A stretch of DNA of 45,040 bases from Thermodesulfobacteriota bacterium. GTDB taxonomy: Bacteria > Desulfobacterota > Desulfobacteria > Desulfobacterales > C00003060. The position numbers and the translations under genes are program-made. Below, in pieces: positions 3,365-43,315 of the stretch (positions are counted from its first letter, which is position 1; each line of letters starts with the position of its first letter). The DNA lies in contig JAXHVD010000021.1 of the NCBI GenBank assembly GCA_034189385.1, positions 1-45,040 of the forward strand. Direction: 5' to 3'. Under the pieces are notes generated by a model that saw nothing but the letters and a program-made list of their open reading frames with translations, was not told the DNA's origin and ran no database searches.

Positions 3365-3512
3365 CTCAACGTTCTATATTGGACCGGTACTTCTCCGGCT
3401 AAGAATTAGGTGTTTTCCTGCCTTTGAATCCGTAATTTTGCCCATTGTGCCCTATGCTTGATTTGGCTACAAAAGGCTGTATTAGGAGACGTATGTAAAA
3501 CGTGTGGCTGGC
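3365..3512 (+). promoter_or_regulatory. Conserved leader/promoter region, copy 2 (upstream of PKD protein)
   Basis: Colinear homology with 277-423. Confidence 0.6.
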
Positions 3513-3546
3513 CTATCTTCAGTTACCTCAACAATGGAGACAAATC

Positions 3547-6500: not shown

Positions 6501-9500
6501 TTCCGGTAGTCCCACCACGGGTGGAGAGCCCCTGACAGTCACCTTCACGGACGTTTCTACTGGGGTTGTGACGGGCTGGTCGTGGGATTTTGAAAACGAC
6601 GGTATAGAAGACTCTACCCTGCAGAACCCGTCGCATACCTACAACGCGGCCGGCACCTATACGGTCAAGTTCACTGCCACCGGTCCGGGAGGGTCAGACA
6701 CGGAGATAAAGACCGACTACATTACCGTGAACCACGTCGCGGACTTTTCGGCTACACCCACAACAGGTGGAGAGCCGCTGATCGTCACCTTCACGGATCT
6801 TTCATCAGGCAATGTGACGGGCTGGTCGTGGGATTTTGAAAACGACGGTATAGAAGACTCTACCTTGCAAAATCCCACGTATACGTATAGCAACGCCGGC
6901 ACTTACACGGTCAAGCTGACAGTCACTGGCCCGGGGCCGTCAGACACGGAGATAAAGACCGACTACATCACCGTGAACCACGTGGCTGACTTTTCGGCCA
7001 CTCCCACAACCGGCGTAGAGCCGCTGACGGTCACCTTCACGGATCTTTCATCAGGCGGTGTCACGGGCTGGTCGTGGGATTTTGAAACCGACGGTATAGA
7101 AGACTCCACCTTGCAAAACCCCTCGCATACCTACAACACGGCTGGCACCTATACGGTCAAACTGATAGCCACTGGACCGGGAGGGTCAGACAAGGAGAAA
7201 AAGATTGACTACATCACGGTAACGGATGCCCCGCCTGTGGCGGATTTTTCCGGCAGTCCCACAAGCGGCGGAGCGCCCTTAACGGTCAACTTCACCGACC
7301 TTTCTACAGGCAATGTTACGGAATGGTCGTGGGATTTTGAAAACGACGGTGTAGAAGACTCCACTGAGCAAAATCCCACCTATACATACAACGGTGCTGG
7401 CACCTATACGGTGAAATTGGTAGCCACTGGGCCGGGAGGGTCAGACATTGAGACAAAGGCCGGCTACATCACCGTGAACCACGTGGCGGACTTTTCGGCC
7501 TCTCCTACAACCGGTGACGAGCCCCTGACGGTTACCTTTACCGACCTTTCTACAGGCGGCGTCACGGGCTGGTCGTGGGATTTTGAAAACGACGGTATAG
7601 AAGACTCCACCTTGCAAAATCCCACTCACACGTATGGCAATGCCGGCACTTACACGGTTAAGCTGACAGCCACTGGCCCAGGGGGGTCAGACACGGAGAT
7701 AAAGACTGACTACATTATTCCCGCGCACAAGGCTGATTTTTCAGCCACAGCCACGAGCGGTAGCGAGCCGTTGACGGTCACCTTCACGGATCTTTCTACC
7801 CATACAGTCACGGGCTGGTCGTGGGATTTTGAAAATGACGGTGTAGAAGACTCCACTGAGCAAAATCCCACTCATACGTATAACGGTGCTGGTACCTACA
7901 CCGTCAAGCTCACGGTAACAGGCCCCGGTGGGTCAGACACGGAGAAGAAGATTGGATACATCACCGTCCACGTATATCCGTGGGCTTATGACTATGGGGG
8001 CAGCGGGTATGATCGAGCCCATAGTATTCAGCAGACCTTCGACGCCCATGGGAACCCTGATGCTTACATTGTAGCGGGTGAGACGTCCTCATTCGGTGCG
8101 GGAAACAAGGACGTTTGGGTCGCGAAGCTCGACCCAAGCGCAAGTGTTATCTGGGAAAAAACCTATGGCGACACTGGCGACGAGACCGCTTGTGGCGTCC
8201 AGCAAACATCGGACGGCGGATATGTCGTCGCAGGTCATACGGATTCGTTCAGTCATTCTATATGGGTTCTGAAGTTACACTCCGACGGGGCCATTGTCTG
8301 GCAGAAGACTTATGGTGGTTGGCTTGAGACGGGAGCAACGTGCCTGCAAGAAACTTCAGATGGTGGCTACATACTGGCAGGTGATTGGGATAATGGGGCA
8401 AGGAGTTCTGACATTTGGGTCTTGAAGCTGGATTCCACCGGGACCGTGGGCTGGCAAAAGACCTATGGCACGGGTCAGGCCGACTCGGCCGTTTCCCTTC
8501 GACAGACGTCAGATGATGGCTATATCCTGGCAGCCAATCGGGATGATGGACTGGGAAATGCCCACAGCTGGGTCTTGAAACTAGGTTCCAGCGGAACTGT
8601 GGACTGGTCGAAGACATATTCATTAGGCACTATCAGCACCGTGGGCTCCATTCAGCAGACGTCAGATAGTGGGTATATCGTAGCAGGCAGTACCGATTTT
8701 TTTGGTACGGGTACGGAAGTTGATTACTGGGTCTTGAAGCTGAATCCTGACGGATCCATTGTTTGGCAGAAGGCCTATGGGCTAACAGATTCTACGGATG
8801 AACATGCCCATGCCGTCCAGCAGACTTCAGATGGAGGGTATATCGTGGTGGGGGATGGCATCACAGCACTCAGGCTGGATTCAAACGGGGCAAGGCTTTG
8901 GGAAAAGACATATGGCGGTGCAGGGGATGATTCCATCCGCTCTGTCGAGCAAACCAGAGACGGTGCGTATATCTTGGCAGGTTTCAGTGATTCTTTCGGT
9001 TCTTACTGGACGGATGACATGTTTGTTCTGAGGCTGAATAGTGCTGGAGAAATCCCTAACTGCCAGATCATGACCACGAGTGCGTCCCTGTCCAGCGGCA
9101 CGGGCGGTTCCGGTGAAAATCGCTCATACGTCGCTGGCACTTCCCTCGTCGACGTTGTCGATACAAACGTTACCCCTCAGGATTCGTTGGCTGAAATATC
9201 CATGGTGTGTTCTTCAATTGGTACTGAAGCGGTTGTGATCAAGGACGCTTACACCTGTAATGACAGTGGCGTACCCCAGACCGTGTTTGCTCCCAAAGAG
9301 CCGATTCAGTTTCATGTTGTTTATGATGTTCTGGGCAATCCGGGTACGCAGTACAAGGTGAAGGCCCTCATCAATATTTTTGGAAGGACCTACGAGAAGA
9401 AGGCCCTGCAGTACCCGGGAACGGACTACGTCCTGATCAAAGATCGGGACGACGGGAAGAGGATCAAGGTTCCTTACACGGCTGCAGGTAAAATCAAGAC

Positions 9501-9588
9501 GATTGTGTACAAGCTGAAACTGAAGCTTTCGGGTGAACTTCTGGATAAAGAAAAGACCACATCTCAGTTTACAGTAACAGGGCTTTAA
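3547..9588 (+). CDS. Giant secreted/surface protein: 17 PKD domains, beta-propeller-like region (QQTSDGGYIVAG repeats), shared basic C-terminal domain
   Basis: ATG 3547 with GGAGA RBS (ORF opens at 3502); signal peptide ending SAYA; repeated VADF..P..G..PLTV.FTD.S..WSWDF..NP..TY..GTYTV.L PKD motif. Confidence 0.9.
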   Translation: MNSAGDNEHRYMAYRLMIKRPLRRGSIYGVFVALLAMMCLFAMVSSAYAVPPVADFSGSPTTGVEPLTVTFTDLSTGVPTSWSWDFNNDTVEDSTLQNPSFTYNTPGTYTVSLTATNGEGSDTETKIDYITVTDAPPVADFSGSPTTGVEALTVDFTDLSTGNVTGWSWDFENDGTPDSTLQNPSHTYNTAGTYTVKLTATSPGGSDIETKIDYIAVTDAPPVADFSGSPTTGVEALTVDFTDLSTGNVTGWSWDFENDGTPDSTLQNPSHTYNTAGTYTVKLTATGPGGSDIETKIDYITVTDAPPVADFSGSPTTGVEPLTVDFTDLSTGNVTGWSWDFENDGTPDSTLQNPSHTYNTAGTYTVKLTATGPGGADIETKIDYITVTDPPPVADFSGSPTTGVKPLTVDFTDLSSGNVTGWSWDFENDGIEDSTLQNPSHTYNTAGTYTVKLTATGPGGSDIETKIDYITVTDPPPVADFSGSPTTGVEPLTVDFTDLSTGNVTGWSWDFENDGIEDSTLQNPSHTYNTAGTYTVKLTATGPGGSDIETKTDYIIVYRVADFSATPTTGGEPLTVNFTDLSSGGVTGWSWDFENDGIEDSTLQNPTYTYSNAGTYTVKLTVTGPGPSDTEIKTDYITVNHVADFSATPTTGAEPLTVNFTDLSSHGVTGWSWDFENDGIEDSTLQNPSHTYNTTGTYTVKLTATGPAGSDVETKIDYITVTDAPPVADFSGSPTTGAGPLTVTFTDLSSGNVTGWSWDFENDGTEDSTLQNPSHTYNTTGTYTVKLTATGPAGSDIETKIDYITVTDAPPVADFSGSPTTGAEPLTVTFTDLSTGVVTGWSWDFENDGTSDSTLQNPSHTYNTTGTYTVKLIATGPTGSDIETKIDYITVSDAPPVADFSATPTTGVEPLTVTFTDVSTGVVTGWSWDFENDGIEDSTLQNPSHTYNTAGTYTVKLTATGPGGSDIETKIDYITVTDAPPVAEFSGSPTTGGEPLTVTFTDVSTGVVTGWSWDFENDGIEDSTLQNPSHTYNAAGTYTVKFTATGPGGSDTEIKTDYITVNHVADFSATPTTGGEPLIVTFTDLSSGNVTGWSWDFENDGIEDSTLQNPTYTYSNAGTYTVKLTVTGPGPSDTEIKTDYITVNHVADFSATPTTGVEPLTVTFTDLSSGGVTGWSWDFETDGIEDSTLQNPSHTYNTAGTYTVKLIATGPGGSDKEKKIDYITVTDAPPVADFSGSPTSGGAPLTVNFTDLSTGNVTEWSWDFENDGVEDSTEQNPTYTYNGAGTYTVKLVATGPGGSDIETKAGYITVNHVADFSASPTTGDEPLTVTFTDLSTGGVTGWSWDFENDGIEDSTLQNPTHTYGNAGTYTVKLTATGPGGSDTEIKTDYIIPAHKADFSATATSGSEPLTVTFTDLSTHTVTGWSWDFENDGVEDSTEQNPTHTYNGAGTYTVKLTVTGPGGSDTEKKIGYITVHVYPWAYDYGGSGYDRAHSIQQTFDAHGNPDAYIVAGETSSFGAGNKDVWVAKLDPSASVIWEKTYGDTGDETACGVQQTSDGGYVVAGHTDSFSHSIWVLKLHSDGAIVWQKTYGGWLETGATCLQETSDGGYILAGDWDNGARSSDIWVLKLDSTGTVGWQKTYGTGQADSAVSLRQTSDDGYILAANRDDGLGNAHSWVLKLGSSGTVDWSKTYSLGTISTVGSIQQTSDSGYIVAGSTDFFGTGTEVDYWVLKLNPDGSIVWQKAYGLTDSTDEHAHAVQQTSDGGYIVVGDGITALRLDSNGARLWEKTYGGAGDDSIRSVEQTRDGAYILAGFSDSFGSYWTDDMFVLRLNSAGEIPNCQIMTTSASLSSGTGGSGENRSYVAGTSLVDVVDTNVTPQDSLAEISMVCSSIGTEAVVIKDAYTCNDSGVPQTVFAPKEPIQFHVVYDVLGNPGTQYKVKALINIFGRTYEKKALQYPGTDYVLIKDRDDGKRIKVPYTAAGKIKTIVYKLKLKLSGELLDKEKTTSQFTVTGL
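3694..7971 (+). repeat. Tandem array of 17 PKD-coding units (mostly 255 or 246 bp)
   Basis: 17 WSWDF motifs counted; near-identical DNA units; TDAPP/TDPPP and short VNH linkers. Confidence 0.9.
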
Positions 9589-10011: not shown

Positions 10012-10926
10012 TTAAAGACCCCCGCGATTACTTTTGACCAATCTCTTGAGCGTTTTTGCGTTCTTGATGCCGTAGTTCTTGTAGCAATTGTTAAAAAGTA
10101 CAAAGGTCTCATCGGCTTTGGCGTGTACCTCCTGTACCTTTTCTGTCCACCCTTCCAGTTCTTTTTCATCATAAAGGTAGCGATAGCGCTCCACCGTTGC
10201 CACACCCTTTTTGAACCAGTTTTCGCGGTTTCGACCATGAAAACGGAGATAGACAATGGGGGCTGCCACTGCCAGGGGGGCTTCCCAGCCCCTGATCCAA
10301 GGGGCGTCGGTGACCACATAGCTCATGTCGTTTGCTTTTAGGAAGCGTAAGGCCCTGTCCTTCTCTGGAGCGACAATCCATCTCCAATGTCGAAACTCCA
10401 CAGCCAGGCGATGAAACAGGAGTTTTTCCCGGACCAGTTCCAGCCAGGCATAGGACCTGGCAGACGGCACAAACCAGGGCGGGAACTGAAAGAGGAGACA
10501 GCCCAGTTTGCCTGCTTCTTTGAGTGGCCTTAAGGCTGATTGAAACATATCAAAGGCCGCCTCCACGATCTCCTTTGGGAATTCCCTTGCCTGGGCCCTT
10601 TTCAGGATCGCTTTGGGAAGCTCTTGTCTCAGCACCCTTGGGATACCTTTCACCACGGTGGGATGGCCTGTGAGCATGGAATAGGCCTTGATATGGAATA
10701 CGAACTCTGGGGGCGTGCGCTTTGCCCATAAGACAGCGTTCCTTTCCGAGGGCAGGGCATAGTAGCTGGAGTCTACTTCTACGGTATCAAAATGCTCTGC
10801 ATAGAACCTAAGACGGCCTTCCGCGGTAGTTACTTGCCTCGGGTAGAAGGTGCCGCTGTCGATCAGGGTCTTGTCTGTCCACGAGGCCGTGCCTACCCTT
10901 ATTCTTTTTATCTTTGCTTCTTTCAT
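10012..10926 (-). CDS. DUF72 family protein
   Basis: RVGTASW, FYP, YAEHFDTVEVDSSYYALP, LFQFPPWF, AVEFRH, YLRFHGRN, YRYLY, FNN motifs. Confidence 0.9.
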   Translation of the reverse strand: MKEAKIKRIRVGTASWTDKTLIDSGTFYPRQVTTAEGRLRFYAEHFDTVEVDSSYYALPSERNAVLWAKRTPPEFVFHIKAYSMLTGHPTVVKGIPRVLRQELPKAILKRAQAREFPKEIVEAAFDMFQSALRPLKEAGKLGCLLFQFPPWFVPSARSYAWLELVREKLLFHRLAVEFRHWRWIVAPEKDRALRFLKANDMSYVVTDAPWIRGWEAPLAVAAPIVYLRFHGRNRENWFKKGVATVERYRYLYDEKELEGWTEKVQEVHAKADETFVLFNNCYKNYGIKNAKTLKRLVKSNRGGL

Positions 10927-11326
10927 AAAACCCTTTCACTGTCCAAAAGCGCTTTGCCACAATGGATACGCCGCGCAATCCGAAACGGTTCATGACGCCT
11001 TCTACCAGGAGCACCGTACTGGCCAGGATCTTTTTTGCATATCTCGCCTGCACATCTTCAAATACGGTGAGATCAAAGAGACCGTCTTCGTCTTCCAGGG
11101 TCAAAAACATGACCCTTTTTCTACTCTTGGTAGGGGGCGTGTGAATAATGATGACCCGCCCGGCTGCCTTCACCAGGCTTCCATGGGGTTTCCACTTTAA
11201 GGCGGAACTTTGGATAAAGCCGTACGTTTTAAGGTCCTCCCTAAAAGGGGTCATGATGTGTATGGAAGCAGATACCTGCATCACGTCAGACTCGGTTAAA
11301 AACAGGTAAAGGTCCTTTCTATCCAC
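10808..11326 (-). CDS. Stand-alone C-terminal OB-fold portion of DnaE2
   Basis: AGRV..HTPPTKSRKRVMFLTLEDEDG..DLTVF..LLVEG matches the Pol III alpha OB fold; GTG 11326 lies 7 nt after GAGGAGG and overlaps the dnaE2 stop; 3' end overlaps DUF72 by 119 bp. Confidence 0.8.
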   Translation of the reverse strand: MDRKDLYLFLTESDVMQVSASIHIMTPFREDLKTYGFIQSSALKWKPHGSLVKAAGRVIIIHTPPTKSRKRVMFLTLEDEDGLFDLTVFEDVQARYAKKILASTVLLVEGVMNRFGLRGVSIVAKRFWTVKGFYERSKDKKNKGRHGLVDRQDPDRQRHLLPEASNYRGRPS

Positions 11327-13901
11327 AGGCACGCCTCCTCTTGTTCAAGGGGAGCCCCAGGAAGGCACCGGCGAAAGAGAGCCTTAGGATGATCTCCTGT
11401 GGGAGTTTCACCCTGAGACAAAAGGCCTTGATGCTGGTAAAGGGTCCCTTTTCTCGTTCTCTTAAGATCCGTTCAGCAAATTTCGGCCCCAGACCATTTA
11501 TGGCTAAAAGTCCTATTCGGATGCTGTTTTTTTCTGCCGTATAATCTTGATCGCTGTGGTTGATGTGAGGCCTCAGTACCTCAACTCCCCGCCTCTTCGC
11601 CTCGTTTACCATAACGCCTTTGGGGTAAGAGCCCACGTGGCCTGCATTGAGAAGCCCCAGATAGAATTCAAGGGGATGATGGGCCTTGAGAAAGGCGCTC
11701 TGGTAGGTGATGTGGGCAAAGGAGGCTGCATGGGCCTTGCAAAAGCCATAACCGGCAAAGCCTGCCACCATGGCAAATATCTCCTCCGCTGTCTTTTGGC
11801 CGTGCCCTTGTCTTATGGCCCCCTGGATAAAGGCCCTTTTCATCTTTTCCATCTCAGCTGCCGACCGTTTTTTGGTCATGGCCCGCCGCAGGAGATCGGC
11901 CTCGGCAAGGGAAAAGCCGGCGATGCGATGGGCAATCTTTAAGACCTGTTCTTGGAAAAGGACAACCCCGTAAGTTTCTTTAAGGATCGGCTCAAGGTCT
12001 GCATGAGGATAACGAACTCGTTTTTTACCCCTTCTTCGCTCTACATAGGGAGTCACCATGTCTCCCTTCATAGGGCCGGGCCTGAAGAGGGAAATCTCAG
12101 CAATAATATCGGAAAATTTCTGGGGCTGAAGCCTTCCCAGGAGCTGGCGCTGACCAGGCGATTCGACCTGAAAGACCCCTACGGTTTCCGTGGTCCTTAA
12201 GAGACGAAAGGTCTTTTCATCATCTAAAGGGATCTGGTCAAGGTCCAGAAAAGTACCCCGGTCACCAAGACGGTCCAACGTCTTTTGGATGGCCGTGTGC
12301 ATACGGAGCCCTAATAGATCAAGCTTCACCAGACCAAGGGCCTCTACGTCGTCCTTGTCGTATTGGGCTACAGGAAACCCTTTGTTGGACATCTCTAGGG
12401 GAGTCCACGAGGCCAGTTCCTCAGGTGCGATGATCACCCCACCTAGGTGCACTGAAAGCTGATAGGGAAGGCCTGAAATCTTTGCCGCCATCTCTAGGAG
12501 TTCAGCCTCCTCTCTAAGGGGTGTGTCTTTTAGTTCAGGTAGGGTGTGAGATGCAGCTTCAATCTGGGAACTCTTCAAATAATATGGAAGAAAAGAGGTT
12601 AATCGATCAATCTTGTCATAGGAATATCCAAAGGCCCTGCCAAGCTTACGTATGGCCCCACGAGCCCTGAAGGTGGGAATCGTGGCCACCATGGCAGCCT
12701 GGTCTGCATATCTTTCCATGACATAGGTGATAACCTCGTCTCTTCTCATAGAGTCAAAATCAAGGTCCACATCAGGCATGTCTGACCGGCCCTCATTGAG
12801 AAATCTTTCAAACAAGAGATCGTGCTCCAGAGGGTCCACACCTCCAAGAAGCAAATAGGTCATGAGGGACCCGGCGGCAGACCCCCTCACGGTGCAGCGA
12901 ATCCGCCTGGACCTGGCGAAATCCCGCACATCTTTCACCAATAGGAAGTATCCAGAAAGTCCCTTTTGCCGTACAAGGTCCAGTTCCCGTTCCAGATCCA
13001 TAAGGACAGGATAGGGGACCGGCCTATAGGTCTTTGCCAAGGCGGAAAAACAGAGCCTGGTAAGGCGGCTGTCTGCGGACTCGCCTTCAGGCACGGGATA
13101 ATAAGGAGGATGCATTTGGTTTATAGGAAGCGTCAGTTTACAGTTTTTCGCAATACGCACGGCATTTCCCAGGGCCTCGGCATATGGGATTTCTGCCCGC
13201 ATCTCCTTTGCTGATTTGAGATAAAACTGTTCATTGGGAACTCCATGAACATCTCTATGGTGGACCGTCAGCTGGATATCGATAAGCCTTTGATGGACAT
13301 CGAAGTCATCTTTGTCCAAAAAGGCCACATCATTCGTTGCTACCACAGGAAGCCCAGCCTTTTTGGCAAGCCCTGCCGAGGCATCCATGACTTCGTCGTC
13401 GTCTTTAAGGCCATGGTGCTGGATTTCAACAAAGAGTTGCCCAGGCCCAAAACTTTCTTTGAGTCTGTAAAGCCAGTGGCAGGCCTGTTCCAAGTTGCCC
13501 TTAGAAATCAGTCTCTGAAGCCTTCCGTCCTTTCCTCCTGTCAGACAGATGAGATCCTGGGAGAACCGGGTCAGGGCATCCTGAGAACAGGCAGGTTGTC
13601 CCCTTGGATTGTTCATGTGTGCTTCAGACAAGATGCGGCAAAGGTTTCTGTAGCCAGCAAAGGAAAGGGCCAGCAATATCAAAGAAGTCCCATCCCGGAG
13701 GGTAATCTCTGACCCCAGAATCGGCTTCATAGCTTCTGCTGTGGCAGCCTTGTAAAATCGAACAGCCCCATAGAGACCGTTTTTGTCTGTAAGGGCCATG
13801 GCGTCAAACCCTCTCTTTTTTGCGCGCTGCACCAAGGCTTCGGGTGTAAAGGTGCCGTAAAGAAAGGAAAAAGCACTGTGAACATGGAGATGGGTGAACA
13901 T
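11319..13901 (-). CDS. dnaE2: Error-prone DNA polymerase III alpha (DnaE2/ImuC-type), lacking the C-terminal OB fold
   Basis: PHP HLHVHSAFS, RGSAAGS, PDVDLD, KLDLLGL, GVFQVESPG, YGFCKAHAASFA; located in a lexA operon. Confidence 0.85.
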   Translation of the reverse strand: MFTHLHVHSAFSFLYGTFTPEALVQRAKKRGFDAMALTDKNGLYGAVRFYKAATAEAMKPILGSEITLRDGTSLILLALSFAGYRNLCRILSEAHMNNPRGQPACSQDALTRFSQDLICLTGGKDGRLQRLISKGNLEQACHWLYRLKESFGPGQLFVEIQHHGLKDDDEVMDASAGLAKKAGLPVVATNDVAFLDKDDFDVHQRLIDIQLTVHHRDVHGVPNEQFYLKSAKEMRAEIPYAEALGNAVRIAKNCKLTLPINQMHPPYYPVPEGESADSRLTRLCFSALAKTYRPVPYPVLMDLERELDLVRQKGLSGYFLLVKDVRDFARSRRIRCTVRGSAAGSLMTYLLLGGVDPLEHDLLFERFLNEGRSDMPDVDLDFDSMRRDEVITYVMERYADQAAMVATIPTFRARGAIRKLGRAFGYSYDKIDRLTSFLPYYLKSSQIEAASHTLPELKDTPLREEAELLEMAAKISGLPYQLSVHLGGVIIAPEELASWTPLEMSNKGFPVAQYDKDDVEALGLVKLDLLGLRMHTAIQKTLDRLGDRGTFLDLDQIPLDDEKTFRLLRTTETVGVFQVESPGQRQLLGRLQPQKFSDIIAEISLFRPGPMKGDMVTPYVERRRGKKRVRYPHADLEPILKETYGVVLFQEQVLKIAHRIAGFSLAEADLLRRAMTKKRSAAEMEKMKRAFIQGAIRQGHGQKTAEEIFAMVAGFAGYGFCKAHAASFAHITYQSAFLKAHHPLEFYLGLLNAGHVGSYPKGVMVNEAKRRGVEVLRPHINHSDQDYTAEKNSIRIGLLAINGLGPKFAERILREREKGPFTSIKAFCLRVKLPQEIILRLSFAGAFLGLPLNKRRRACG

Positions 13902-13914
13902 AAATATAATGATT

Positions 13915-13979
13915 GGCATAAGGCGTAGGGCGCAAGGTGCGAAAAAATTGCTGCCTTAAAGCCTTATGCCGTGCGCCTT
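13915..13979. repeat. Degenerate heptamer repeats in two opposite orientations downstream of the four-helix-bundle gene
   Basis: GGCATAA GGCGTAG GGCGCAA GGTGCG ... TGCCTTA AAGCCTT ATGCCGT GCGCCTT. Confidence 0.8.
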
Positions 13980-13981
13980 TA

Positions 13982-14335
13982 TTATTTCTCTCTTGCCTGG
14001 ATAAGCCTCGCTAGCATACCTGAAAGGGCCTGACATTCTTGTTGGATATGGCCAAAATGCTCCTTCTTAAGGTAGCCGATCTCATAGGCTATCATGGCCT
14101 GCGTAAGAAGTTCTGCAGAGGAACCCTTTGCCGTATAAAAGAACTTGATAGCCTGCCGGTCCGTATCCAGTTCATCGCCTTCTGCTATGTTACTAGGAAT
14201 GGAAACAGCAGTGCGGCGCATTTGGTCTCTCAAGCCATAGTCTTTGGAAAATGCATTGCCCTCTGTCAATTTATAGATATATACGGCAAGTTCTTTTGAG
14301 CGCTGCCACACCTTAAGTTCCTGAAACTTTCCCAT
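13982..14335 (-). CDS. Four helix bundle protein (23S rRNA IVS-protein/TIGR02436-like)
   Basis: F.EL.VWQ, YGLRDQMRR.AVSIPSNIAEG, F..AKGS..EL.TQ motifs; RBS AAGGGAG. Confidence 0.9.
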   Translation of the reverse strand: MGKFQELKVWQRSKELAVYIYKLTEGNAFSKDYGLRDQMRRTAVSIPSNIAEGDELDTDRQAIKFFYTAKGSSAELLTQAMIAYEIGYLKKEHFGHIQQECQALSGMLARLIQAREK

Positions 14336-14347
14336 CTCCCTTAACTC

Positions 14348-14381
14348 CCTTATGCCCTACGCCTTACGCCCTATGCCTTAT
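14348..14381. repeat. Heptamer tandem repeats upstream of the four-helix-bundle gene, overlapping the lexA stop
   Basis: Minus strand AAGGCAT AGGGCGT AAGGCGT AGGGCAT; 14348-14370 is a 20/23 inverted match to 13915-13937. Confidence 0.8.
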
Positions 14382-14996
14382 ATTACCCCTCTTCCTTATG
14401 AGCCCCACCATGACTCCCAGGATTTTCAAGGATCGGCTCTCTCCCTTTTTAAAAATCAGAGGCCCATACTTTGGATTTGCCGACTCCAGTCTCACCTGGT
14501 TTTGTCTACGGACAAAATATTTCAGGGTCACCTCGTCATCGATAAGAGCAGCCACGATATCTCCGCTTTCAGCCTGCTCCTGCACCTTGATGATCACATA
14601 ATCTCCGTCTTGGATATGGGCATCCACCATGGAGTCTCCCCTGACTTGGACTGCAAAGTTTGTTTCAGTCCCAAAGAACCCCTTATCAATCCCCAGGAAG
14701 TCTTCAATATTCTCAAGGGCCAAAATCGGTGTCCCTGCTGCAATCCTGCCTACCAGGGGGATCTGTCTTTCAGACAAAGGGCGGGCTCCGGGCAGGGTGA
14801 TCCCTCGCCCTTTGCCTGGATGAATCTGGATATACCCCTTCTTTTCCAGGGACCGCAGATGAAAATGGGCCGTGTTGAGGGACCTAAATCCAAAGTGTTC
14901 ACACAGTTCTCTTATGGTGGGTGGGAGCCCATGGTCTGCATTGAAATCCATAAGAAACCTTAATACCTGCCCTTGCTTGCTTGATAGACCTTCCAT
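14364..14996 (-). CDS. lexA: SOS repressor LexA
   Basis: PPTIREL..HLRSLEKKGYI wHTH; GRIAAG cleavage site; GDSM (Ser); VTLK (Lys); ATG 14996 with GGAGG RBS. Confidence 0.95.
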   Translation of the reverse strand: MEGLSSKQGQVLRFLMDFNADHGLPPTIRELCEHFGFRSLNTAHFHLRSLEKKGYIQIHPGKGRGITLPGARPLSERQIPLVGRIAAGTPILALENIEDFLGIDKGFFGTETNFAVQVRGDSMVDAHIQDGDYVIIKVQEQAESGDIVAALIDDEVTLKYFVRRQNQVRLESANPKYGPLIFKKGESRSLKILGVMVGLIRKRGNIRHRA

Positions 14997-15013
14997 AACG
15001 TGTCCTCCACGAT

Positions 15014-15031
15014 ATAGAACAAATGTTCTAT
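15014..15031. promoter_or_regulatory. LexA box 1 (GAAC-N4-GTTC)
   Basis: Palindrome ATAGAAC-AAAT-GTTCTAT between the -10 element and the lexA RBS. Confidence 0.85.
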
Positions 15032-15037
15032 CTTCCG

Positions 15038-15065
15038 AGTATAGAACGAATGTTCTGTATGTCAA
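15038..15065 (-). promoter_or_regulatory. Sigma70 promoter of the lexA operon with LexA box 2 in the spacer
   Basis: TTGACA-16 nt-TATACT on the minus strand; ATAGAAC-GAAT-GTTCTGT at 15041-15058. Confidence 0.85.
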
Positions 15066-16263: not shown

Positions 16264-19074
16264 TCATGAAGGGAGAACGTATTTTTTCCCTTTTCGAACG
16301 AGGGCATTCTCTTTTTCCATCTGTTTGAGATGTTCTCCTACGGTACCTCTCCGAATCCCAGTATTTCGGTGGATCTGTGTGACAGTGGCCGCGTGGTTCT
16401 CTTTCAGCCAGTCAAGGACAGCCTGTTTCACCTGCTGATATTTGCTGTCACTGCGCCGAAATCGGTGGGGGGCAATCTCGGCCCTAGGTTCACCTGCCTC
16501 GCCAAGGGACAAGAAAGGTTCATAGTCAGAAACAGGGTCTTTGGAGAGGATGTAGAAATCAACGTCGTGAATGATGTAATGGGTGAGGGCCAAGGCCCGC
16601 CTCTGTTCAGAGAACTGCAACGATTTTGTCAACTGACCAACCAGCGCGTAATCGTCCTTGTAGACACGCTCGCCAGTGGTTTCCTCCCGGGCCCAGAGAG
16701 TCGATTCTGTTGGGGTGCATCCATCAGCAGACAAGATATCTCGGATCCACTCTAGGGCCATGGCGACTTCCACTCCCTCTGAAGGGCGAAACCCTCCCAA
16801 GACAACGGCAATGTCGCAGTCTTTAGCGCGATGACCTCCGTGGTCAAGGCCTCCATAGGAGACTACCACAGGGTCTAACTCAGGATATTCCTTTTCCAGA
16901 AAGCCCTTAAGATATCCCTTTATGGTCGTTTCAGAGGCGACAAAGAAGTATCTGTGGTCCTTTCCCTGCTCCCGCAGCAGGTCCTGGATGAACTCCTGGA
17001 CCTTTTGTGCCTTCTCTCCTTGGCTCTTGCCCGGCAAATCAATCTCCCCATTCTGGGTTACCCTGATTCGCCCAAAAGGCTTTATGTCCAAGGTCATCTG
17101 TTCAAACTGAATGTCTTGCAGTTTCTTTTCCACCAGGTGATCTTCCGGCATAGTGGCATCGAAAAAAGCGTGGGCAGGGAGCTTCGAGAGATTGTAGGCC
17201 GTTGGGTTTGGAAAGTGGACTAAAAGGGAACCGTTCTTCCTCTCAACAACCACGCCCAGCCGTATAGCATGTTCAAGCCATTGCAAATAGTCTTCGACCC
17301 TGCCCACATCACGAAGGGCCTCCGGGATAGACAGTTGTGAATGGTGAAATGATTTCTTCCAGTTCTTTACCATGGCATTAGAAAACCTGAATGTGGCGTT
17401 TACAGGCGGCGTGATGGCAGTGTCATCGCACTTGGTGATCTCTTTAAAAAGCTGGTCCACGTGACCAATGGCCTTACCGGCCTTGTCAAAGGGAGACAAG
17501 AACTCCGTCGATTTCGTCAAGAACTCCTTGGTCTTTGCCTCGTCAAGGATAAGCGGCTGATAACACCTTGAAAAAATAAAGTCTTCGGCAAGTGCAAAAA
17601 CATCTCTTCCCACTGCGTCTCTTTTTTCATCAACCCCCTGTTTGAACCATTTGCAGAGATTCGGGTTCTCACAGAAGGGGGCATATTCATAATGGGTGGC
17701 GACAATGATTCTGGAAAAGGGGGCACGCTCCTGATGGGAGATAAATCTGCAGTATGCCTTCTTTTCGCAATCCTCGCATGTATCTTTGTTGAAGGTCCAA
17801 TGCTGGCGATACCCAGCGGCGAGCTCCTCATAATAGGGACACTCCTTTTCATTTAAGCTATCTACATAGTAGACTTCCTTTTGAAGAAGCTCCCTCTTAA
17901 GGTCCCTCTTTAGAAAACCGTTCTCGTAGTCGAAGTGCTTCCAATATTTAAGACCTTTTTTCTGTGCGATTCTGATTTTGAGGTATCGTACGATTTCCTG
18001 ACAAAGCCTGTGTGTAGGCATGAATATGATAGCGGACAGGGCCTCATTTTCCACCAAGGCTTCTGGCAGGGCATAAACCTTGCCCAGGCCCATGGGTCCG
18101 TCTACAAAGAGGGCCTTTTCCTTTGCAACCCTCTTTGTCCAGCCCAGGGCCTTGTTCCTGTCCCTTTCAAGGGCGATCTCCGTGCATATGGGATATATGA
18201 CGGGTCGAACAGCGTCTTGAAAGTGTTGCCATATGGTTTCTTCGAATCCAACCTGTGTGGAAAGGTGCTCAAGCGTTTCCGTTGGGTCATATTCTGACAA
18301 CCATAGGTTCCGCTCCAAGGCCTCCTGAAAGAGGTTTTCGTCGAAATCAGCATCGCCTCTCTCCGCCAGGCGGCTTCTCACAGCCTCTCTTAGAGATTCT
18401 CCAGCCGTTTGTTTCAGTATCTCAATCCACGCAATGCTTTTCTCTCCAAGTTGCTTTGGATCACCCTCGCTCCATTTGGGAGAGACGCCTTCCTCATCTA
18501 TTTCCACTCGCGATATCCTGCTGGGACTCAGGCACACCAAGAGGTTTCGGAACCTGGGGGTGTCTGGATAGAGCCTCCTGAGTTGAATCTCTCCTGTCTC
18601 ATTCTCTTTTTCCTGCTTTCTCTCTACGTCTCCTGGTATCATCATTAAGTAGGGAACGCCCGGCGTTGTATAGAGCGCATAGGAATCAGAGGGGTAACGA
18701 TTCACTAAGTCCACATAGCCAATCGTCTCATCTTCCCAGGCCGGGATAGACTTAAATTTTAGAAAATCGTGTTCATCGGCCATCCGTTCGCGCTGAATGA
18801 ACTGCTCCCACGTATTGGCTGCCGGGTTTGAGTTGGGGACAATGATGAAATCTCGAAGATCGACTAGAGGATTATCTCTGGGAAGGGGTTTGAGGCTGGT
18901 CTTTTTGCACTTGCGACATGTGATGCCTTGATAGATGAAGTTTCCACAATCGGCATAGACAACACCCCAAAGTCGTAAAAGGTCTTTGAACTCTTCTTGC
19001 CCATAGGCTTGTTGGCACTCTGGGTTTTCACAGATAAAAGGGAAAACGTCTTCACGGACCTTAGGGTCAAACAT
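16264..19074 (-). CDS. Large hypothetical protein: N-terminal Cys motifs, degenerate SF2 helicase-like core, C-terminal winged HTH
   Basis: CENPEC..CRKC; GPMGLGKV; IIFMPT; CPYY..CEDC....C; IIVATH; FFDAT; TVTQIHRNTGIRRGTVGEHLKQM..LVRKGKKY; RBS GAGGT. Confidence 0.7.
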   Translation of the reverse strand: MFDPKVREDVFPFICENPECQQAYGQEEFKDLLRLWGVVYADCGNFIYQGITCRKCKKTSLKPLPRDNPLVDLRDFIIVPNSNPAANTWEQFIQRERMADEHDFLKFKSIPAWEDETIGYVDLVNRYPSDSYALYTTPGVPYLMMIPGDVERKQEKENETGEIQLRRLYPDTPRFRNLLVCLSPSRISRVEIDEEGVSPKWSEGDPKQLGEKSIAWIEILKQTAGESLREAVRSRLAERGDADFDENLFQEALERNLWLSEYDPTETLEHLSTQVGFEETIWQHFQDAVRPVIYPICTEIALERDRNKALGWTKRVAKEKALFVDGPMGLGKVYALPEALVENEALSAIIFMPTHRLCQEIVRYLKIRIAQKKGLKYWKHFDYENGFLKRDLKRELLQKEVYYVDSLNEKECPYYEELAAGYRQHWTFNKDTCEDCEKKAYCRFISHQERAPFSRIIVATHYEYAPFCENPNLCKWFKQGVDEKRDAVGRDVFALAEDFIFSRCYQPLILDEAKTKEFLTKSTEFLSPFDKAGKAIGHVDQLFKEITKCDDTAITPPVNATFRFSNAMVKNWKKSFHHSQLSIPEALRDVGRVEDYLQWLEHAIRLGVVVERKNGSLLVHFPNPTAYNLSKLPAHAFFDATMPEDHLVEKKLQDIQFEQMTLDIKPFGRIRVTQNGEIDLPGKSQGEKAQKVQEFIQDLLREQGKDHRYFFVASETTIKGYLKGFLEKEYPELDPVVVSYGGLDHGGHRAKDCDIAVVLGGFRPSEGVEVAMALEWIRDILSADGCTPTESTLWAREETTGERVYKDDYALVGQLTKSLQFSEQRRALALTHYIIHDVDFYILSKDPVSDYEPFLSLGEAGEPRAEIAPHRFRRSDSKYQQVKQAVLDWLKENHAATVTQIHRNTGIRRGTVGEHLKQMEKENALVRKGKKYVLPS

Positions 19075-39185: not shown

Positions 39186-39371
39186 TTAGGTTTCTTCTAC
39201 AGTAATGGCTTCCTGCTCGCAGACCTCTACACAGCTTTCACATCCTAAGCACTCCTCTGCGTTGACAGGCTCGGATTTCTCGTCTTGAAGTTCAAAGACC
39301 TCAACGGGACAAACCTCGACACATTCGCCGCAGCCGGTGCACTTGTCCTTATCGACGCTCGGTGTGAACAT
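39186..39371 (-). CDS. 2[4Fe-4S] ferredoxin
   Basis: CTGCGECVEVCP and CLGCESCVEVC; RBS AAAGGAGG. Confidence 0.93.
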   Translation of the reverse strand: MFTPSVDKDKCTGCGECVEVCPVEVFELQDEKSEPVNAEECLGCESCVEVCEQEAITVEET

Positions 39372-39565: not shown

Positions 39566-40612
39566 TTACAAAACAAGGCCTATGATGCTGTTCTTGGCAC
39601 AGTCTCCGTGTTCAGGACCAGTCTTGAGGCCACATCTTTTCTGTAGGAGAGTGCAAGGGGCAAGGCCGGGTACGACGGACCAACAGATACGTACTGTTCT
39701 ATTCCCAGGCTGGCTCACAGAGGCTTCCCAAGCCTTGATCATATCGTCGATCTCGCGCCCTGCCACTTCAACCCTTTGTCGCAGCTGATCACGCCACTCT
39801 GTTGTGAGGATCGCACCAAGAAGCTCTTGCAGAAAGGGGCTCCAAGGGGCCTTTTTGTGCGACTGTCCAGTGCAGGGGATGGCCCGTTTAAGCGGTTCAA
39901 GGCTTTCTTGTGCAGCTTCAAGAAGCCAGGTATAAGCCACCGGTGAGTCAGTCAAAAGGATGGCTGACGTATCATGGTCTTCCTGAAACAGGTGATTCCA
40001 AGCAGACATTCGATGCTCAATCATGAAGCCGCCAGGATCTCTGTCAGAATCCACAAGAGCGGCTCCGGGCATGGAGATCTCACTCTCTTCTGTCCTGTCA
40101 ATACGAAAGAAGTCCTGCAAGGCCTGTTCCTGCAACTTGAATTGCTCAAGGTGCTCTCGCAATTCCAGGGACCGCTCATCATAGTCTTGGGCCAGACGCA
40201 GGAAGAGCTGAGGGCCGAGATCGCCGTCCCAGAACGTTTTTGTTGTCTTGTCCACAGGTGCCTCTGATGCCTTGATTTCAGAAACGATCTTTGGGGTCAG
40301 GGGATCTACTGGAGCAATGTGACTCCCCACGGCCTTAAGATAGGCCATGTCGGCGTCCTGATTCATAAGACCCCATGTTTTCCATTGCTGTAATTCGCCC
40401 TCAAGGGTTTTCTTGTCAACGACATCTTCAAAGGGAACGCGGATTTCCAAAAACCGGTCGCTACCTGTCTGAGCGCCCGCGAAAGGAGGGGAACCGACAG
40501 GTCGATATAGGGCCACCCGGTCAAAGCAACGGGACAAGGCCTCAAGGAGTGAGGAGCCCATGACAGTAAAGGGGAAATAGACCGGAGACAGGATTGTGGA
40601 TTCAGGCTTCAT
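39566..40612 (-). CDS. Hypothetical protein
   Basis: 348-aa ORF with ATGA overlap to the upstream fusion gene. Confidence 0.75.
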   Translation of the reverse strand: MKPESTILSPVYFPFTVMGSSLLEALSRCFDRVALYRPVGSPPFAGAQTGSDRFLEIRVPFEDVVDKKTLEGELQQWKTWGLMNQDADMAYLKAVGSHIAPVDPLTPKIVSEIKASEAPVDKTTKTFWDGDLGPQLFLRLAQDYDERSLELREHLEQFKLQEQALQDFFRIDRTEESEISMPGAALVDSDRDPGGFMIEHRMSAWNHLFQEDHDTSAILLTDSPVAYTWLLEAAQESLEPLKRAIPCTGQSHKKAPWSPFLQELLGAILTTEWRDQLRQRVEVAGREIDDMIKAWEASVSQPGNRTVRICWSVVPGLAPCTLLQKRCGLKTGPEHGDCAKNSIIGLVL

Positions 40613-42888
40613 ATGGTTGTCTTCTCATCCCTCACTTCTACCCCTAAGGCCCAAAGCTGTTCCCTGATTTCATCGGCACGGCCCCAGTCTTTTCTGCCCC
40701 TGGCCTCTTCTCTTTGGGCCATCAGGCCTTGCACGTGGGCGTCCAGCGAGGACTCCTCGAACTGGAAGACACCCAGCACCTCATCAATGCGTTGAAGGGC
40801 CGCCTTGATCCGTCTTGCTCCCTGGAGATCTATCTCTTTGCTTGAAACCAAGGCGTTGAGTTTTCTAACCACTTGAAAAATAATGGCTATGGCAGGGGGG
40901 ATGTCCAGATCGTCGTCCAAGGCATCGGTAAACCCTGTCCTCATGTCGTATAGAAGCTGGTCCAGGTCACTGTAAGGACGCCCATCCTCCACACGGTTCA
41001 ACCGATATAGGCACTCGTCAAGCCTGCGAATGGCGCTCCTTGCTTGGTCAAGGGCTTCAAAGGAGAAATCTAAGGGTTTGCGATAATTGTGGGAAAGCAG
41101 CCAATATCGAATAGCTCGGCCACTGTATCCTCGGTTCAACAGGTCCCTCACATAGGGCATGTCAGGACCTGCCTGCGCTTTTTTCCCCCCAGACAGCACC
41201 AATTCGCTGTGTATCCAATAACGTGCCAAAGGTTTTCCTGTGAGGGCCGTGGTGACGGCTATCTCGTTTTCATTGTGGGGGAACGTGAGGTCCCGGCTGG
41301 TTGCATAGATGTCAAACGTTTCCCCCAGGTGTTTCATGGCCATTGCCGCCGACTCAATATGCCAGCTGGGTCGCACAGCCCCCCACGGTGTTTTTGTATA
41401 GATCCCGCGCTTCAGTTCTGAAAGCTTGGACCGTTTGAGGAGAGTGAAATCCCTTGGATTGGCCTTTTCATATTCATCCAGGTTCACCGTAGAGCCGAGC
41501 CTAATCTTATCAAGGTCAATCCCAGAGAGCTTACCGTATTGCGTGAATCTTGAAATATCAAAGTAAACGGACCGGAGCTTCTCATAGGCAAAACCCTTTT
41601 CCAGGAGTCGGGCCACCAGGGCAACCATATCTTCAACATGCTCGCTGGCTCTGGCGTACTTGGCTGCCGGGGTCATGCCGATGGCCCCGGCATCCTCTAG
41701 AAACGCCTCGAAATACTCGTCAGTAAAAGGGGTTAGCTCCATACCCGCCTTCTCAGACCCAAGGATCGTCTTGTCATCTAGGTCTGTGATATTGACCACA
41801 TGGGTTACCCCATATCCCTTATAGGTTAGATATCGGCAGAGGAGGTCGGCCACTACAAAACGACGACACTCTCCAACATGGATGCGATCGTGGAGTGTCG
41901 GGCCGCAGGAATAGATGGAAACCTTGCCAGGGCTAAGGGGCTCAAAGGGTTCCTTGGTGCGGGTCAGGGTGTTGAAAAACTTCATGCTGACTTGTTCTCG
42001 CATGGCAAAGAGGGGGGTGCTTAAATAGCGCTCTCCACCATCGGGCAAGATCACCACGACCACACCGTCAGACAGGGACTTGACCTCTTCACAGGCGATG
42101 GCCATGGCAGCTCCCGAACTCATACCCACAAACATGCCTTCCTGCTTCGCAAGCCGTCTGGTCATCTCAAAGGCCCTTTCATCGTCTATATTGACCTTTC
42201 TGTCCAGACGGCTATTTTCAAATATTCCAGGCCTATAGGACTCCTTCATGTTTTTTAGGCCTTGGATTTTGTGGCCAAGATAGGGTTCAACACCCACGAC
42301 CTGAACGTTGGGATTGTATTCCTTGAGGCGCCGTGAGGTTCCCATGAGGGTGCCCGTGGTCCCCATGGTGGCAACTAACATGGTAATGCGCCCTCCAGTC
42401 TGTTCCCAGATTTCCCGACCAGTGCCATCGTAGTGGGCTCGCCAGTTGGTATTATTGTTAAACTGGTCCGTCATGAAATAGGTGTCGGGATCTTCGCGGG
42501 CGAGGCGGTAGGCTTCCTCTATAGCACCATCTGTTCCCAGGTGCGGAGGGGTGAGTCTGATGTCAGCCCCCAGGGCTTGAAGGATCTTGCGGCGCTCCAC
42601 GCTGGCAGATTCTGACATGGTCAGCAGGAGGCGGTATCCCTTGACTGCGCACACCAGGGCCAGACCTATGCCAGTGTTGCCGCTAGTGGCTTCCAGCACG
42701 ATCTTCTCAGGAGTCAGGGCACCAGAGGCCTCTGCCTCCATAATCATGGTTTTGGCAATCCGATCTTTTACCGAGCCACCTGGATTGAAGTATTCAAGCT
42801 TGGCCAGCAGGGTCACCTTGGGGTTGGGGTTGAGCCGCTTGATTTCAAAGAGCGGCGTGTTCCCAATAGCGTCTAGAATCGAAGTCAT
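40609..42888 (-). CDS. cysS: Cysteine synthase - cysteinyl-tRNA synthetase-like fusion
   Basis: N-terminus IGNTPL, NPGGSVKDR, ATSGNTG, GTTGT, DGGERYLS; C-terminus FNTL, CGPT, NITDLDDK, RP.WHIE, FPH.ENE, DDDL, AD.IR; no stop between the domains. Confidence 0.9.
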   Translation of the reverse strand: MTSILDAIGNTPLFEIKRLNPNPKVTLLAKLEYFNPGGSVKDRIAKTMIMEAEASGALTPEKIVLEATSGNTGIGLALVCAVKGYRLLLTMSESASVERRKILQALGADIRLTPPHLGTDGAIEEAYRLAREDPDTYFMTDQFNNNTNWRAHYDGTGREIWEQTGGRITMLVATMGTTGTLMGTSRRLKEYNPNVQVVGVEPYLGHKIQGLKNMKESYRPGIFENSRLDRKVNIDDERAFEMTRRLAKQEGMFVGMSSGAAMAIACEEVKSLSDGVVVVILPDGGERYLSTPLFAMREQVSMKFFNTLTRTKEPFEPLSPGKVSIYSCGPTLHDRIHVGECRRFVVADLLCRYLTYKGYGVTHVVNITDLDDKTILGSEKAGMELTPFTDEYFEAFLEDAGAIGMTPAAKYARASEHVEDMVALVARLLEKGFAYEKLRSVYFDISRFTQYGKLSGIDLDKIRLGSTVNLDEYEKANPRDFTLLKRSKLSELKRGIYTKTPWGAVRPSWHIESAAMAMKHLGETFDIYATSRDLTFPHNENEIAVTTALTGKPLARYWIHSELVLSGGKKAQAGPDMPYVRDLLNRGYSGRAIRYWLLSHNYRKPLDFSFEALDQARSAIRRLDECLYRLNRVEDGRPYSDLDQLLYDMRTGFTDALDDDLDIPPAIAIIFQVVRKLNALVSSKEIDLQGARRIKAALQRIDEVLGVFQFEESSLDAHVQGLMAQREEARGRKDWGRADEIREQLWALGVEVRDEKTTI

Positions 42889-42901
42889 TCCTGATGTCTC
42901 T

Positions 42902-43315
42902 TCACCCAAGGGCCTTTTGAATCTGTTCCCCCACAGACTTGATCTTTTGCATATCTCCTGGAACGATCTCCCAACGTGAGACGGTCACGCCGTCTCCTGA
43001 CCACCTGGGGACGATGTGTACGTGAAGATGGGGCACCACCTGATTTGCCGCCTTTCCGTTCAGCTGCATAAGATTGATTCCATCGGGATTGAGGGCCCCC
43101 TGGACAGCAACCGCCAGTTTTCTGGCGGCCGCCATGACGGCCAGGAAATCGGCTTCAGCGATTTCGTGAATCGTGCTAGCGTGGGCCTTGGGAATGATGA
43201 GAAGATGGCCGTCATTGATTGGGTTGATGTCCATGAAGGCGAGCACCCTGTCATCTTCATATACTTTGACCGATGGGATGTCTCCACTAACGATTTTGCA
43301 GAAGATGCAATCCAT
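42902..43315 (-). CDS. HIT family protein
   Basis: DCIFCKI, DI.P...GH.L.IPK.H, HLHVHIVPR. Confidence 0.93.
   Translation of the reverse strand: MDCIFCKIVSGDIPSVKVYEDDRVLAFMDINPINDGHLLIIPKAHASTIHEIAEADFLAVMAAARKLAVAVQGALNPDGINLMQLNGKAANQVVPHLHVHIVPRWSGDGVTVSRWEIVPGDMQKIKSVGEQIQKALG

Follow-up and report, generated by a model that had tools for sequence, protein, structure and literature searches.

What use does a bacterium have for a cysteine synthase that carries, in the same chain, a full-length and heavily remodelled relative of cysteinyl-tRNA synthetase (CysRS)? This question is raised by a gene at 40609..42888 on the minus strand of a 45,040-nucleotide stretch of DNA (the window: contig JAXHVD010000021.1, positions 1 to 45,040, of assembly GCA_034189385.1, from a Thermodesulfobacteriota bacterium of the Desulfobacterales). 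The original prediction, made from the sequence alone, had described this gene as a cysteine synthase fused to a CysRS domain with altered signature motifs. Our analysis points to an active cysteine synthase carrying a tRNA-Cys-binding pseudo-synthetase, which would couple the synthesis of cysteine to the status of tRNA-Cys; we assign this reading a probability of roughly 45%.

The fusion gene has 759 codons, with an ATG at 42888 and the stop codon TGA at 40609-40611. The open frame spans 40609..42909, and a start at the in-frame TTG at 42909 would lengthen the protein by 7 residues to 766 aa; homologues align from residues 1-4 of the shorter form and start at the ATG at 42888. Pfam places PALP at aa 4-283, tRNA-synt_1e at 315-617, DALR_2 at 653-709 and CysS_C at 714-757. 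The N-terminal half (aa 1-295; 42004..42888) is a CysM-type cysteine synthase dependent on pyridoxal 5'-phosphate (PLP) according to Pfam, NCBIfam and its alignment with the structure 2bhs. It is followed by a short linker (aa 296-300; 41989..42003) and by a full-length CysRS-like half (aa 301-759; 40612..41988) that comprises the Rossmann fold, the CP domain, the DALR helical domain (Pfam, 40762-40932) and the C-terminal CysS_C domain (Pfam, 40618-40749), all on the minus strand. The protein scores above the NCBIfam cut-offs for cysKM (TIGR01136; 362.2 bits, cut-off 344.15) and for cysS (TIGR00435, EC 6.1.1.16; 358.9 bits, cut-off 340, model positions 1-458 of 466) and below that of the cysM equivalog (TIGR01138; 366.4 against 394.2 bits). 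In an AlphaFold2 model (mean predicted local distance difference test score, pLDDT, 85.9; predicted TM-score, pTM, 0.60) each half is confidently folded, and the linker is of low confidence (pLDDT below 50 at 296-298). The protein is a cysteine synthase joined to a remodelled CysRS paralogue.

Over aa 2-295 the PLP half aligns colinearly with residues 2-293 of E. coli CysM (2bhs, 254 bits). It contains SVKDR with Lys41, TSGNTG at 68-73 and GTTGT at 176-180, in agreement with the intact PLP enzyme motifs claimed earlier. We take Lys41 to be the PLP lysine, TSGNTG to be the substrate loop that clamps the free alpha-carboxylate of the substrate, and GTxGT to be the phosphate loop. No variation is seen among 27 diverse fusions, even the most degenerate, at K41, TSGNTG 68-73, GTxGT 176-180 and QGLKN 209-213 or at many further positions. 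Because these motifs are invariant, ordinary chemistry on a free amino-acid substrate is favoured, and the N-terminal half would most likely make cysteine or a close analogue from free O-acetylserine or O-phosphoserine and a sulfur nucleophile. Compared with CysM and CysK (2BHS; TIGR01136, TIGR01138), the fusion shares the colinear stretch 2-295, the PLP lysine, TSGNTG and GTxGT. It differs, however, in its invariant QGLKN, where E. coli CysM has PGIRR, and in the CysRS-like extension of 460 aa.

The CysRS-like half and the housekeeping enzyme

In class I synthetases, the HIGH and KMSKS motifs and the GG turn act in ATP binding, and the CP domain lies at the acceptor end of the tRNA. By alignment to E. 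coli CysRS (1li5) and direct reading of the sequence, HIGH or HIGN is replaced by HVGE (aa 337-340; 41869..41880), DIHGGG by DIYATS (aa 526-531; 41296..41313), and FPHHENE by FPHNENE, with Asn at the H235 position (aa 536-542; 41263..41283). The KMSKS loop has become GKKAQA (aa 568-573; 41170..41187), that is K-AQA inside GGKKAQAG (aa 567-574), in which the second, catalytic Lys is Gln. GRPGWHIEC reads VRPSWHIES. Among the residues C28, C209, H234 and E238 of E. coli CysRS, which are its Zn ligands, three are retained (C328, H538 and E542 at the positions of C28, H234 and E238), whereas C209 is replaced by Ser513, encoded by TCG at 41350..41352. Each of the motif readings in the original prediction, down to this codon, is therefore correct.

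These substitutions are widely shared. The 120 best relatives are all two-domain proteins of 737-794 aa, with 65-100% identity and with source names in the Thermodesulfobacteriota and Desulfobacterales. None of them has an exact KMSKS, none has His or Asn at the fourth HIGH position (Glu in 107) and none has Gly at the G226 position, while all 120 retain H234. Because close relatives lack KMSKS and the His or Asn of HIGH, the changes are lineage traits and not errors; a sequencing error or a pseudogene, the former named by the original prediction as a possible trivial explanation, was rejected on the grounds that the substitutions are common to close relatives and that the domain is under constraint. 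The C209 position is Ser in 98 of the 120, and the residues at the C209 and H224 positions are paired as S+Y in 98, C+H in 19, C+Y in 2, G+Y in 1 and S+H in none. Ser at C28 occurs in 19 relatives, solely on the Ser209 background, suggesting that the Zn thiolate ligands are being lost in the sub-clade of the window protein.

The source genome (64 contigs, about 90% complete) contains a separate canonical cysS at C20:10467-11891, which scores 577.1 bits against 361 for the fusion and has intact CGPT, HIGH, GRPGWHIEC, DIHGGG, FPHHENE and KMSKS motifs. Since the genome has this textbook cysS, the fusion is not the housekeeping CysRS, and the possibility that it is the only cysS, under which the original prediction would have failed, does not apply. 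Together with the loss of ATP-site residues throughout the clade, this bears out the earlier suspicion that the domain is not a normal CysRS. The same genome has a cysK adjoined by a cysE-like gene on C5, and its 42 tRNA genes include one tRNA-Cys (GCA). A tRNA-SeC (UCA) of 98 nt is also found, at G000:C31:4024-4121, and may be either a true selC or a selC*-type tRNA-Cys.

The fusion, called at E <= 1e-130, was found in 122 of 301 genomes sampled evenly across the phylum; by quality and by genus, this amounts to 108 of 260 good-quality genomes and to 79 of 201 genera. Of the 122 genomes, 119 have two or more cysS matches (E <= 1e-40), as opposed to 13 of the 179 that lack the fusion, the lists having been cross-read by eye. 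The exceptions without a second cysS are G008 (79% complete), G087 (62%) and G158 (95%), in the last of which the fusion alone was found. Weak-scoring fusion genomes still have a separate cysS (G145, G264, G041 in two adjacent pieces, and G147 as a partial gene). Three cysS-type matches at E <= 1e-40 are seen in the genomes of family f33 and in G025, G229, G236 and G279; the third copy might be the CysRS* described by Mukai et al. (2017) or another paralogue.

A quick IQ-TREE phylogeny of 79 CysRS-type domains (LG+G4, with support from the Shimodaira-Hasegawa-like approximate likelihood ratio test, SH-aLRT, only; can_G000 and can_G264 were dropped at the picking of open reading frames, ORFs) unites 17 housekeeping CysRS of the phylum in one clade (100) inside a canonical group of 41 rows (99). 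All fusion halves of the phylum fall outside this group, together with some stand-alone or fragmentary relatives. The cell's cysteine--tRNA ligase is thus a different protein, of which the CysRS-like half is a paralogue. One CysM-CysRS fusion of different standing is P0124 (MFW6014224.1, from a Nanoarchaeota metagenome-assembled genome). It has the same domain order and length as the window protein (768 aa, 45% identity), but its motifs are fully canonical (HIGN, GRPGWHLEC, KMSKS) and it nests among canonical CysRS. Probably this fusion arose independently in DPANN archaea and is truly bifunctional.

Other forms of the family were also encountered. P0136 and its relatives (468 aa, a cluster of 58) are stand-alone CysRS paralogues of the fusion type, with no PLP half and with the motifs HIGL, VRPGWHIEC, DIHTSG and KMSRS. 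Two neighbouring ORFs with a slight overlap, one for the CysM part and one for the CysRS-like part, take the place of the fusion at G286:C15:206485-208753 (L069, L072), and in G071:C96 (L070) the CysM part plus about 40 residues alone is visible. These two could be natural splits or the products of a frameshift or of an assembly error.

How strongly the CysRS-like half is constrained was assessed in 18 genomes having both genes. Sequence identity averaged over the 153 pairs of genomes (kin, hence not independent, so that the figures are descriptive only) reaches 0.669 in the CysM half, 0.533 in the CysRS-like half and 0.542 in the housekeeping CysRS; of the latter two, the CysRS-like half is the more conserved in 70 of the 153 pairs. 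As these means are comparable, the CysRS-like half is under selection as strong as that on the essential CysRS. The distribution over the domains differs, however. Identity is lower in the fusion than in the housekeeping enzyme for the N-terminal (0.527 versus 0.579) and C-terminal (0.589 versus 0.732) parts of the Rossmann fold, but higher for the CP domain (0.700 versus 0.644), the helical domain (0.376 versus 0.329) and the C-terminal domain (0.449 versus 0.439).

The same division is seen at single sites when 115 canonical sequences are compared with 89 non-identical sequences of the fusion clan. Of 51 positions invariant in the canonical set (at least 90%), the clan retains 36, has switched 1 and has lost 14. 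The lost positions include Y35, G202, G205, G227, G228, Q242, M268, K270, S271 and N274 (numbering of the genome's own CysRS) and appear to cluster at and near the ATP site. The second KMSKS Lys (K269) is present in 115/115 canonical and 0/89 clan sequences (Arg in 33), His or Asn at the fourth HIGH position in 115/115 and 19/89, respectively, and G226 is retained in 4 of the 89. The KMSKS loop varies between lineages (KMSRS, KMSQA, KMDEN, KADRD, DENQQ). Activation of any amino acid with ATP is unlikely because the second KMSKS Lys and the fourth HIGH residue are gone. Around the cysteine pocket, retention in the clan is 79/89 for C28, 66/89 for C209, 87/89 for H234, 70/89 for E238, 85/89 for W205 and 74/89 for T68, and the Zn thiolate ligands are wholly gone in degenerate members that still carry the CysRS-like domain.

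The anticodon contacts, on the other hand, are kept. According to a 2026 engineering paper (PMC13449415), E. coli CysRS contacts the anticodon in 1U0B through Arg427, which bonds G34, and through Trp432, Asp436 and Arg439. All four have equivalents in the window protein (R730, W735, D739 and R742; 40663..40701, minus strand). In the 74 of 89 clan sequences aligned at these columns, R427 and D436 are found in all 74, an aromatic residue (W/F/Y) at 432 likewise in all 74, and R439 in 73, P0130 having Lys; the contacts persist even in degenerate members such as G041. Catalytic residues have thus been lost while the fold and the tRNA-binding parts remain under selection, as would be expected of a regulatory module. 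The tRNA-binding or regulatory module that the original prediction had offered as one option fits this pattern, since all four contacts are retained and the tRNA-contacting regions match those of the housekeeping enzyme in their degree of conservation.

The 348-residue partner

The fusion gene is followed by an ORF of 348 aa on the same strand (39566..40612), the ATG of which overlaps the TGA of the fusion (ATGA). Neither Pfam nor NCBIfam assigns it to a family; its homologues, 55 in number, bear the label 'hypothetical' throughout, and their alignment contains no invariant Cys or His. A structural model (pLDDT 76.7, pTM 0.75) gave no match at E <= 0.001 in a Foldseek search against the PDB; the best hit of VIA-align wide (Z 5.5) covers a helical hairpin at aa 247-306 only. 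Kinship with HUP-type nucleotidyltransferases (PPAT, NadR, NMNAT) was rejected at probabilities of at most 0.1, and matches in the ESM Atlas were unusable (best feature score 0.87, TM-score at most 0.35). A profile-profile comparison of the partner with the fusion returned a probability of 0.07, and no longer, fused forms of the partner were found, which is weak evidence.

The partner follows the fusion in its occurrence. Its profile matches 56 of the 301 genomes, 55 of which have the fusion (lists cross-read; about 24 family labels, among which kin are not independent). It adjoins the fusion in 14 of 30 loci examined with 1.5-kb flanks. When flanks of 6 kb are considered, 9 of 21 loci have the two genes side by side, the partner being downstream in 7; in the other 2, which are from another family, it precedes the fusion on the same strand. 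Often it is unlinked, and in G112, G017, G279 and G039 it lies far from the fusion on the same chromosome. The exception is G058, in which the partner occurs with a stand-alone CysM-like gene that is 52% identical to the N-terminal half of the fusion and has no CysRS-like half. A model of the complex of fusion residues 1-650 with the partner (score 0.00, no controls, C-terminal 109 residues outside the model) speaks neither for nor against an interaction. The partner is an accessory component, present in about half of the fusion-bearing lineages. The ORF and its co-occurrence with the fusion are new here; a conserved protein family to which no known domain or fold can be assigned thereby gains a functional anchor.

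Possible functions of the fusion

We propose that the CysRS-like half recognises the GCA anticodon of tRNA-Cys and binds this tRNA without charging it, that the state of tRNA-Cys would thereby be linked to the activity or location of the fused cysteine synthase, and that the 348-residue partner would serve this system as an accessory component. A more specific version is a GCN2 or T-box logic at the protein level, in which uncharged tRNA-Cys is read through its anticodon by the fused dead CysRS and gates the cysteine synthase, with the partner as a third, system-specific subunit; as a whole, this version is rather doubtful.

Several observations weigh against the proposal. The binding of tRNA-Cys without charging is deduced from conservation only, 15 of the 89 clan sequences (P0127 and P0128 included) are unaligned at the anticodon-contact columns, and the identity comparison draws on kin genomes. 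The CysRS-like half still exceeds the TIGR00435 cut-off (358.9 against 340 bits), and some lineages (L019, L022, L026 and others) retain HLGN, KMSRS and all four Zn ligands, so that members of this kind could have residual or altered catalysis. The relative orientation of the two halves is undefined in the AlphaFold2 model, with its low-confidence linker at 296-298. The genome is about 90% complete, so that an extra tRNA or gene may be missed, although the finding of no dedicated extra tRNA-Cys among its 42 tRNAs counts in favour of the proposal. Finally, 67 of the 122 fusion genomes have no detectable partner, which, given G058, may serve the PLP half only.

The fusion could instead be a working though unusual second CysRS, which channels the cysteine from the fused synthase directly onto tRNA-Cys. 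The score above the TIGR00435 cut-off, the lineages with HLGN, KMSRS and all Zn ligands, the retention of the tRNA-reading residues and of most cysteine-pocket residues, and the canonical motifs of P0124, which indicate that a bifunctional enzyme of such design probably exists, all speak for it. We nevertheless consider it improbable, as the second KMSKS Lys is found in 0 of 89 clan members, the window protein has HVGE, K-AQA, ATS for GGG and Ser at C209, another cysS match is present in 119 of the 122 fusion genomes, and the motif states drift between lineages as expected once catalysis is no longer selected. Alternatively, the CysRS-like half might sense free cysteine and exert a HisZ-like allosteric feedback on the fused synthase, with tRNA binding vestigial; W205, H206, H234 and T68 are largely retained across the clan, the window protein keeps three of the four Zn ligands, and the product of the fused enzyme is the cognate amino acid. 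This carries little probability in our view, for the sub-clade is giving up its Zn thiolates (among 120 relatives, Ser stands at C209 in 98 and at C28 in 19), these are wholly lost in degenerate members still having the domain, and a sensor of this kind gives no reason for the invariant anticodon contacts. In a further reading, the domain would act without ATP on Cys-tRNA-Cys or on mischarged tRNA-Cys, by deacylation, cysteinyl transfer or protection, or would merely tether the synthase to the translation machinery. The retention of tRNA-binding parts with loss of ATP parts, and a CP domain more conserved than in the housekeeping enzyme, agree with this, but the neighbours (tmk, surE, lptD, adk and thiL) include no conserved gene for a candidate acceptor or transferase, and no reason for the fusion to a cysteine synthase is offered, leaving it a slim chance.

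The original prediction had also suggested that O-acetylserine or O-phosphoserine might be charged on tRNA-Cys and then converted by the fused PLP enzyme. A PLP enzyme and a tRNA-Cys-binding domain in one chain do recall SepRS-SepCysS, and an altered Zn site could admit another side chain. However, this suggestion is not supported: the residues for ATP activation are lost, SepRS was not found in the genome, about 90% complete (best match 24 bits, cut-off 380.65), the TSGNTG loop is invariant in a PLP half colinear with the free-substrate enzyme CysM, and the genome has a normal cysE-like/cysK pair and a normal cysS; we regard it as highly improbable. With the SepRS-SepCysS-SepCysE transsulfursome, as described in PMC5424206 and PMC8762117, the system has in common that a tRNA-Cys-binding module is combined with a PLP enzyme and, perhaps, with an accessory protein as third member. 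The proteins are of unrelated families (SepRS is of class II, and SepCysS is a PLP enzyme of a different fold type), the partner ORF has no invariant Cys and no SepRS was found in the genome. The least probable reading is a cysteine ligase like MshC, itself a CysRS paralogue (PMC9437257), which would be fed by the fused synthase and load a non-tRNA acceptor to make a low-molecular-weight thiol. The weak match to the MshC model (172 bits) remains far from its cut-off (TIGR03447; 172.3 against 485.1 bits) and covers aa 299-707 only, the ATP motifs that such a ligase needs are lost, and an anticodon-reading domain with conserved contacts is present.

For a cysteine synthase with a tRNA-Cys-binding pseudo-synthetase, the closest parallels lie outside the CysRS family. 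The HisRS-like domain of GCN2 is a non-catalytic module, resembling an aminoacyl-tRNA synthetase (aaRS), in amino-acid control. HisZ, which works with HisG, is an aaRS paralogue in histidine synthesis, according to PMC9734150. As in these cases, the CysRS-like half would be an aaRS paralogue that has lost catalysis and is attached to an enzyme of the economy of its cognate amino acid. The aaRS class and family are different, however, and the attached enzyme is fused and is the last of the pathway, so that the likeness would be one of logic and not of membership. By this analogy, the window protein most plausibly works like an aaRS module of the HisZ/GCN2 type.

With canonical CysRS (E. coli CysS, 1LI5/1U0B; best solved match 8QHP), the CysRS-like half shares the fold, the full-length domain order, 36 of 51 invariant positions and the anticodon contacts. 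Unlike canonical CysRS, it lacks the fourth HIGH residue, the GG of DIHGGG and the second KMSKS Lys, has Ser for C209, bears an N-terminal PLP enzyme, exists as a paralogue beside a housekeeping cysS and branches outside the canonical group. The CysRS* of Desulfobacterales is likewise an additional CysRS in this group of bacteria. According to Mukai et al. (2017; PMC5389517), it has no domain for anticodon binding and is encoded downstream of selB* and selC* tRNA-Cys(UCA), whereas the fusion has DALR_2 and CysS_C, sits between a HIT gene and the partner ORF and occurs in a genome whose tRNA-Cys is GCA.

No published description of a CysK/CysM-CysRS fusion was found in open-access papers and bioRxiv, including the parts available of PMC2922099, PMC5388404, PMC5389517, PMC9437257, PMC5424206, PMC8762117 and PMC13449415; work in subscription journals may exist. 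The table of a 2022 review (PMC9437257) lists only CysRS* and MshC as CysRS paralogues. In databases, members are labelled 'cysteine--tRNA ligase' or, in Desulfovibrio ferrophilus, 'cysteine synthase'. The former label is probably wrong for most members, and it is inherited by aaRS gene counts and metabolic models of sulfate reducers and syntrophs. If the proposed coupling is true, a CysRS-derived case would be added to the short list of aaRS paralogues with non-translational roles, and if the gating is true, about 40% of the sampled genomes of an anaerobe phylum would tune cysteine synthesis to translational demand. The family is in any case a natural experiment in which ATP chemistry appears to have been discarded and tRNA reading kept, with intermediates alive in different lineages, and cultured species carry the fusion, for example Desulfovibrio ferrophilus (WP_126381224.1).

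Neighbouring genes and the remainder of the window

Directly upstream of the fusion, a HIT-family gene (42902..43315, minus strand) ends with its stop 13 nt before the ATG of the fusion. It is a neighbour in 1 of 30 loci and probably stands outside the system. Elsewhere the fusion is found next to tmk, surE, lptD, HD-OB, adk, thiL, DUF3786, nitroreductase and DUF169 genes, and unlinked partner genes lie near purL, carAB, glnS, enoyl-CoA hydratase and menaquinone genes. The neighbourhood was rejected as a functional clue, both genes being surrounded by unrelated housekeeping genes. A DUF3786 protein is encoded directly downstream of the fusion in place of the partner at L054:8335-8961 and in L057 (family f40).

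About 195 nt downstream of the partner, the window contains an ORF of about 61 aa (39186-39370, minus strand) with two CxxCxxC-type clusters, possibly a 4Fe-4S ferredoxin-like protein. Further away, a 2028-aa protein with 17 PKD repeats is encoded on the plus strand (3502-9588), and flanking ORFs of 703 aa (690-2801) and 936 aa (16264-19074) belong to no Pfam family. The minus strand carries LexA (14364-15065), a 23S-rRNA-intervening-sequence protein (13982-14335) and a gene of the DNA polymerase III alpha type, which consists of an 866-aa ORF (11319-13919) and an overlapping 174-aa OB-fold ORF (10808-11332). This pair (10808-13919) may be a split or frameshifted error-prone polymerase of the dnaE2 type under SOS control.

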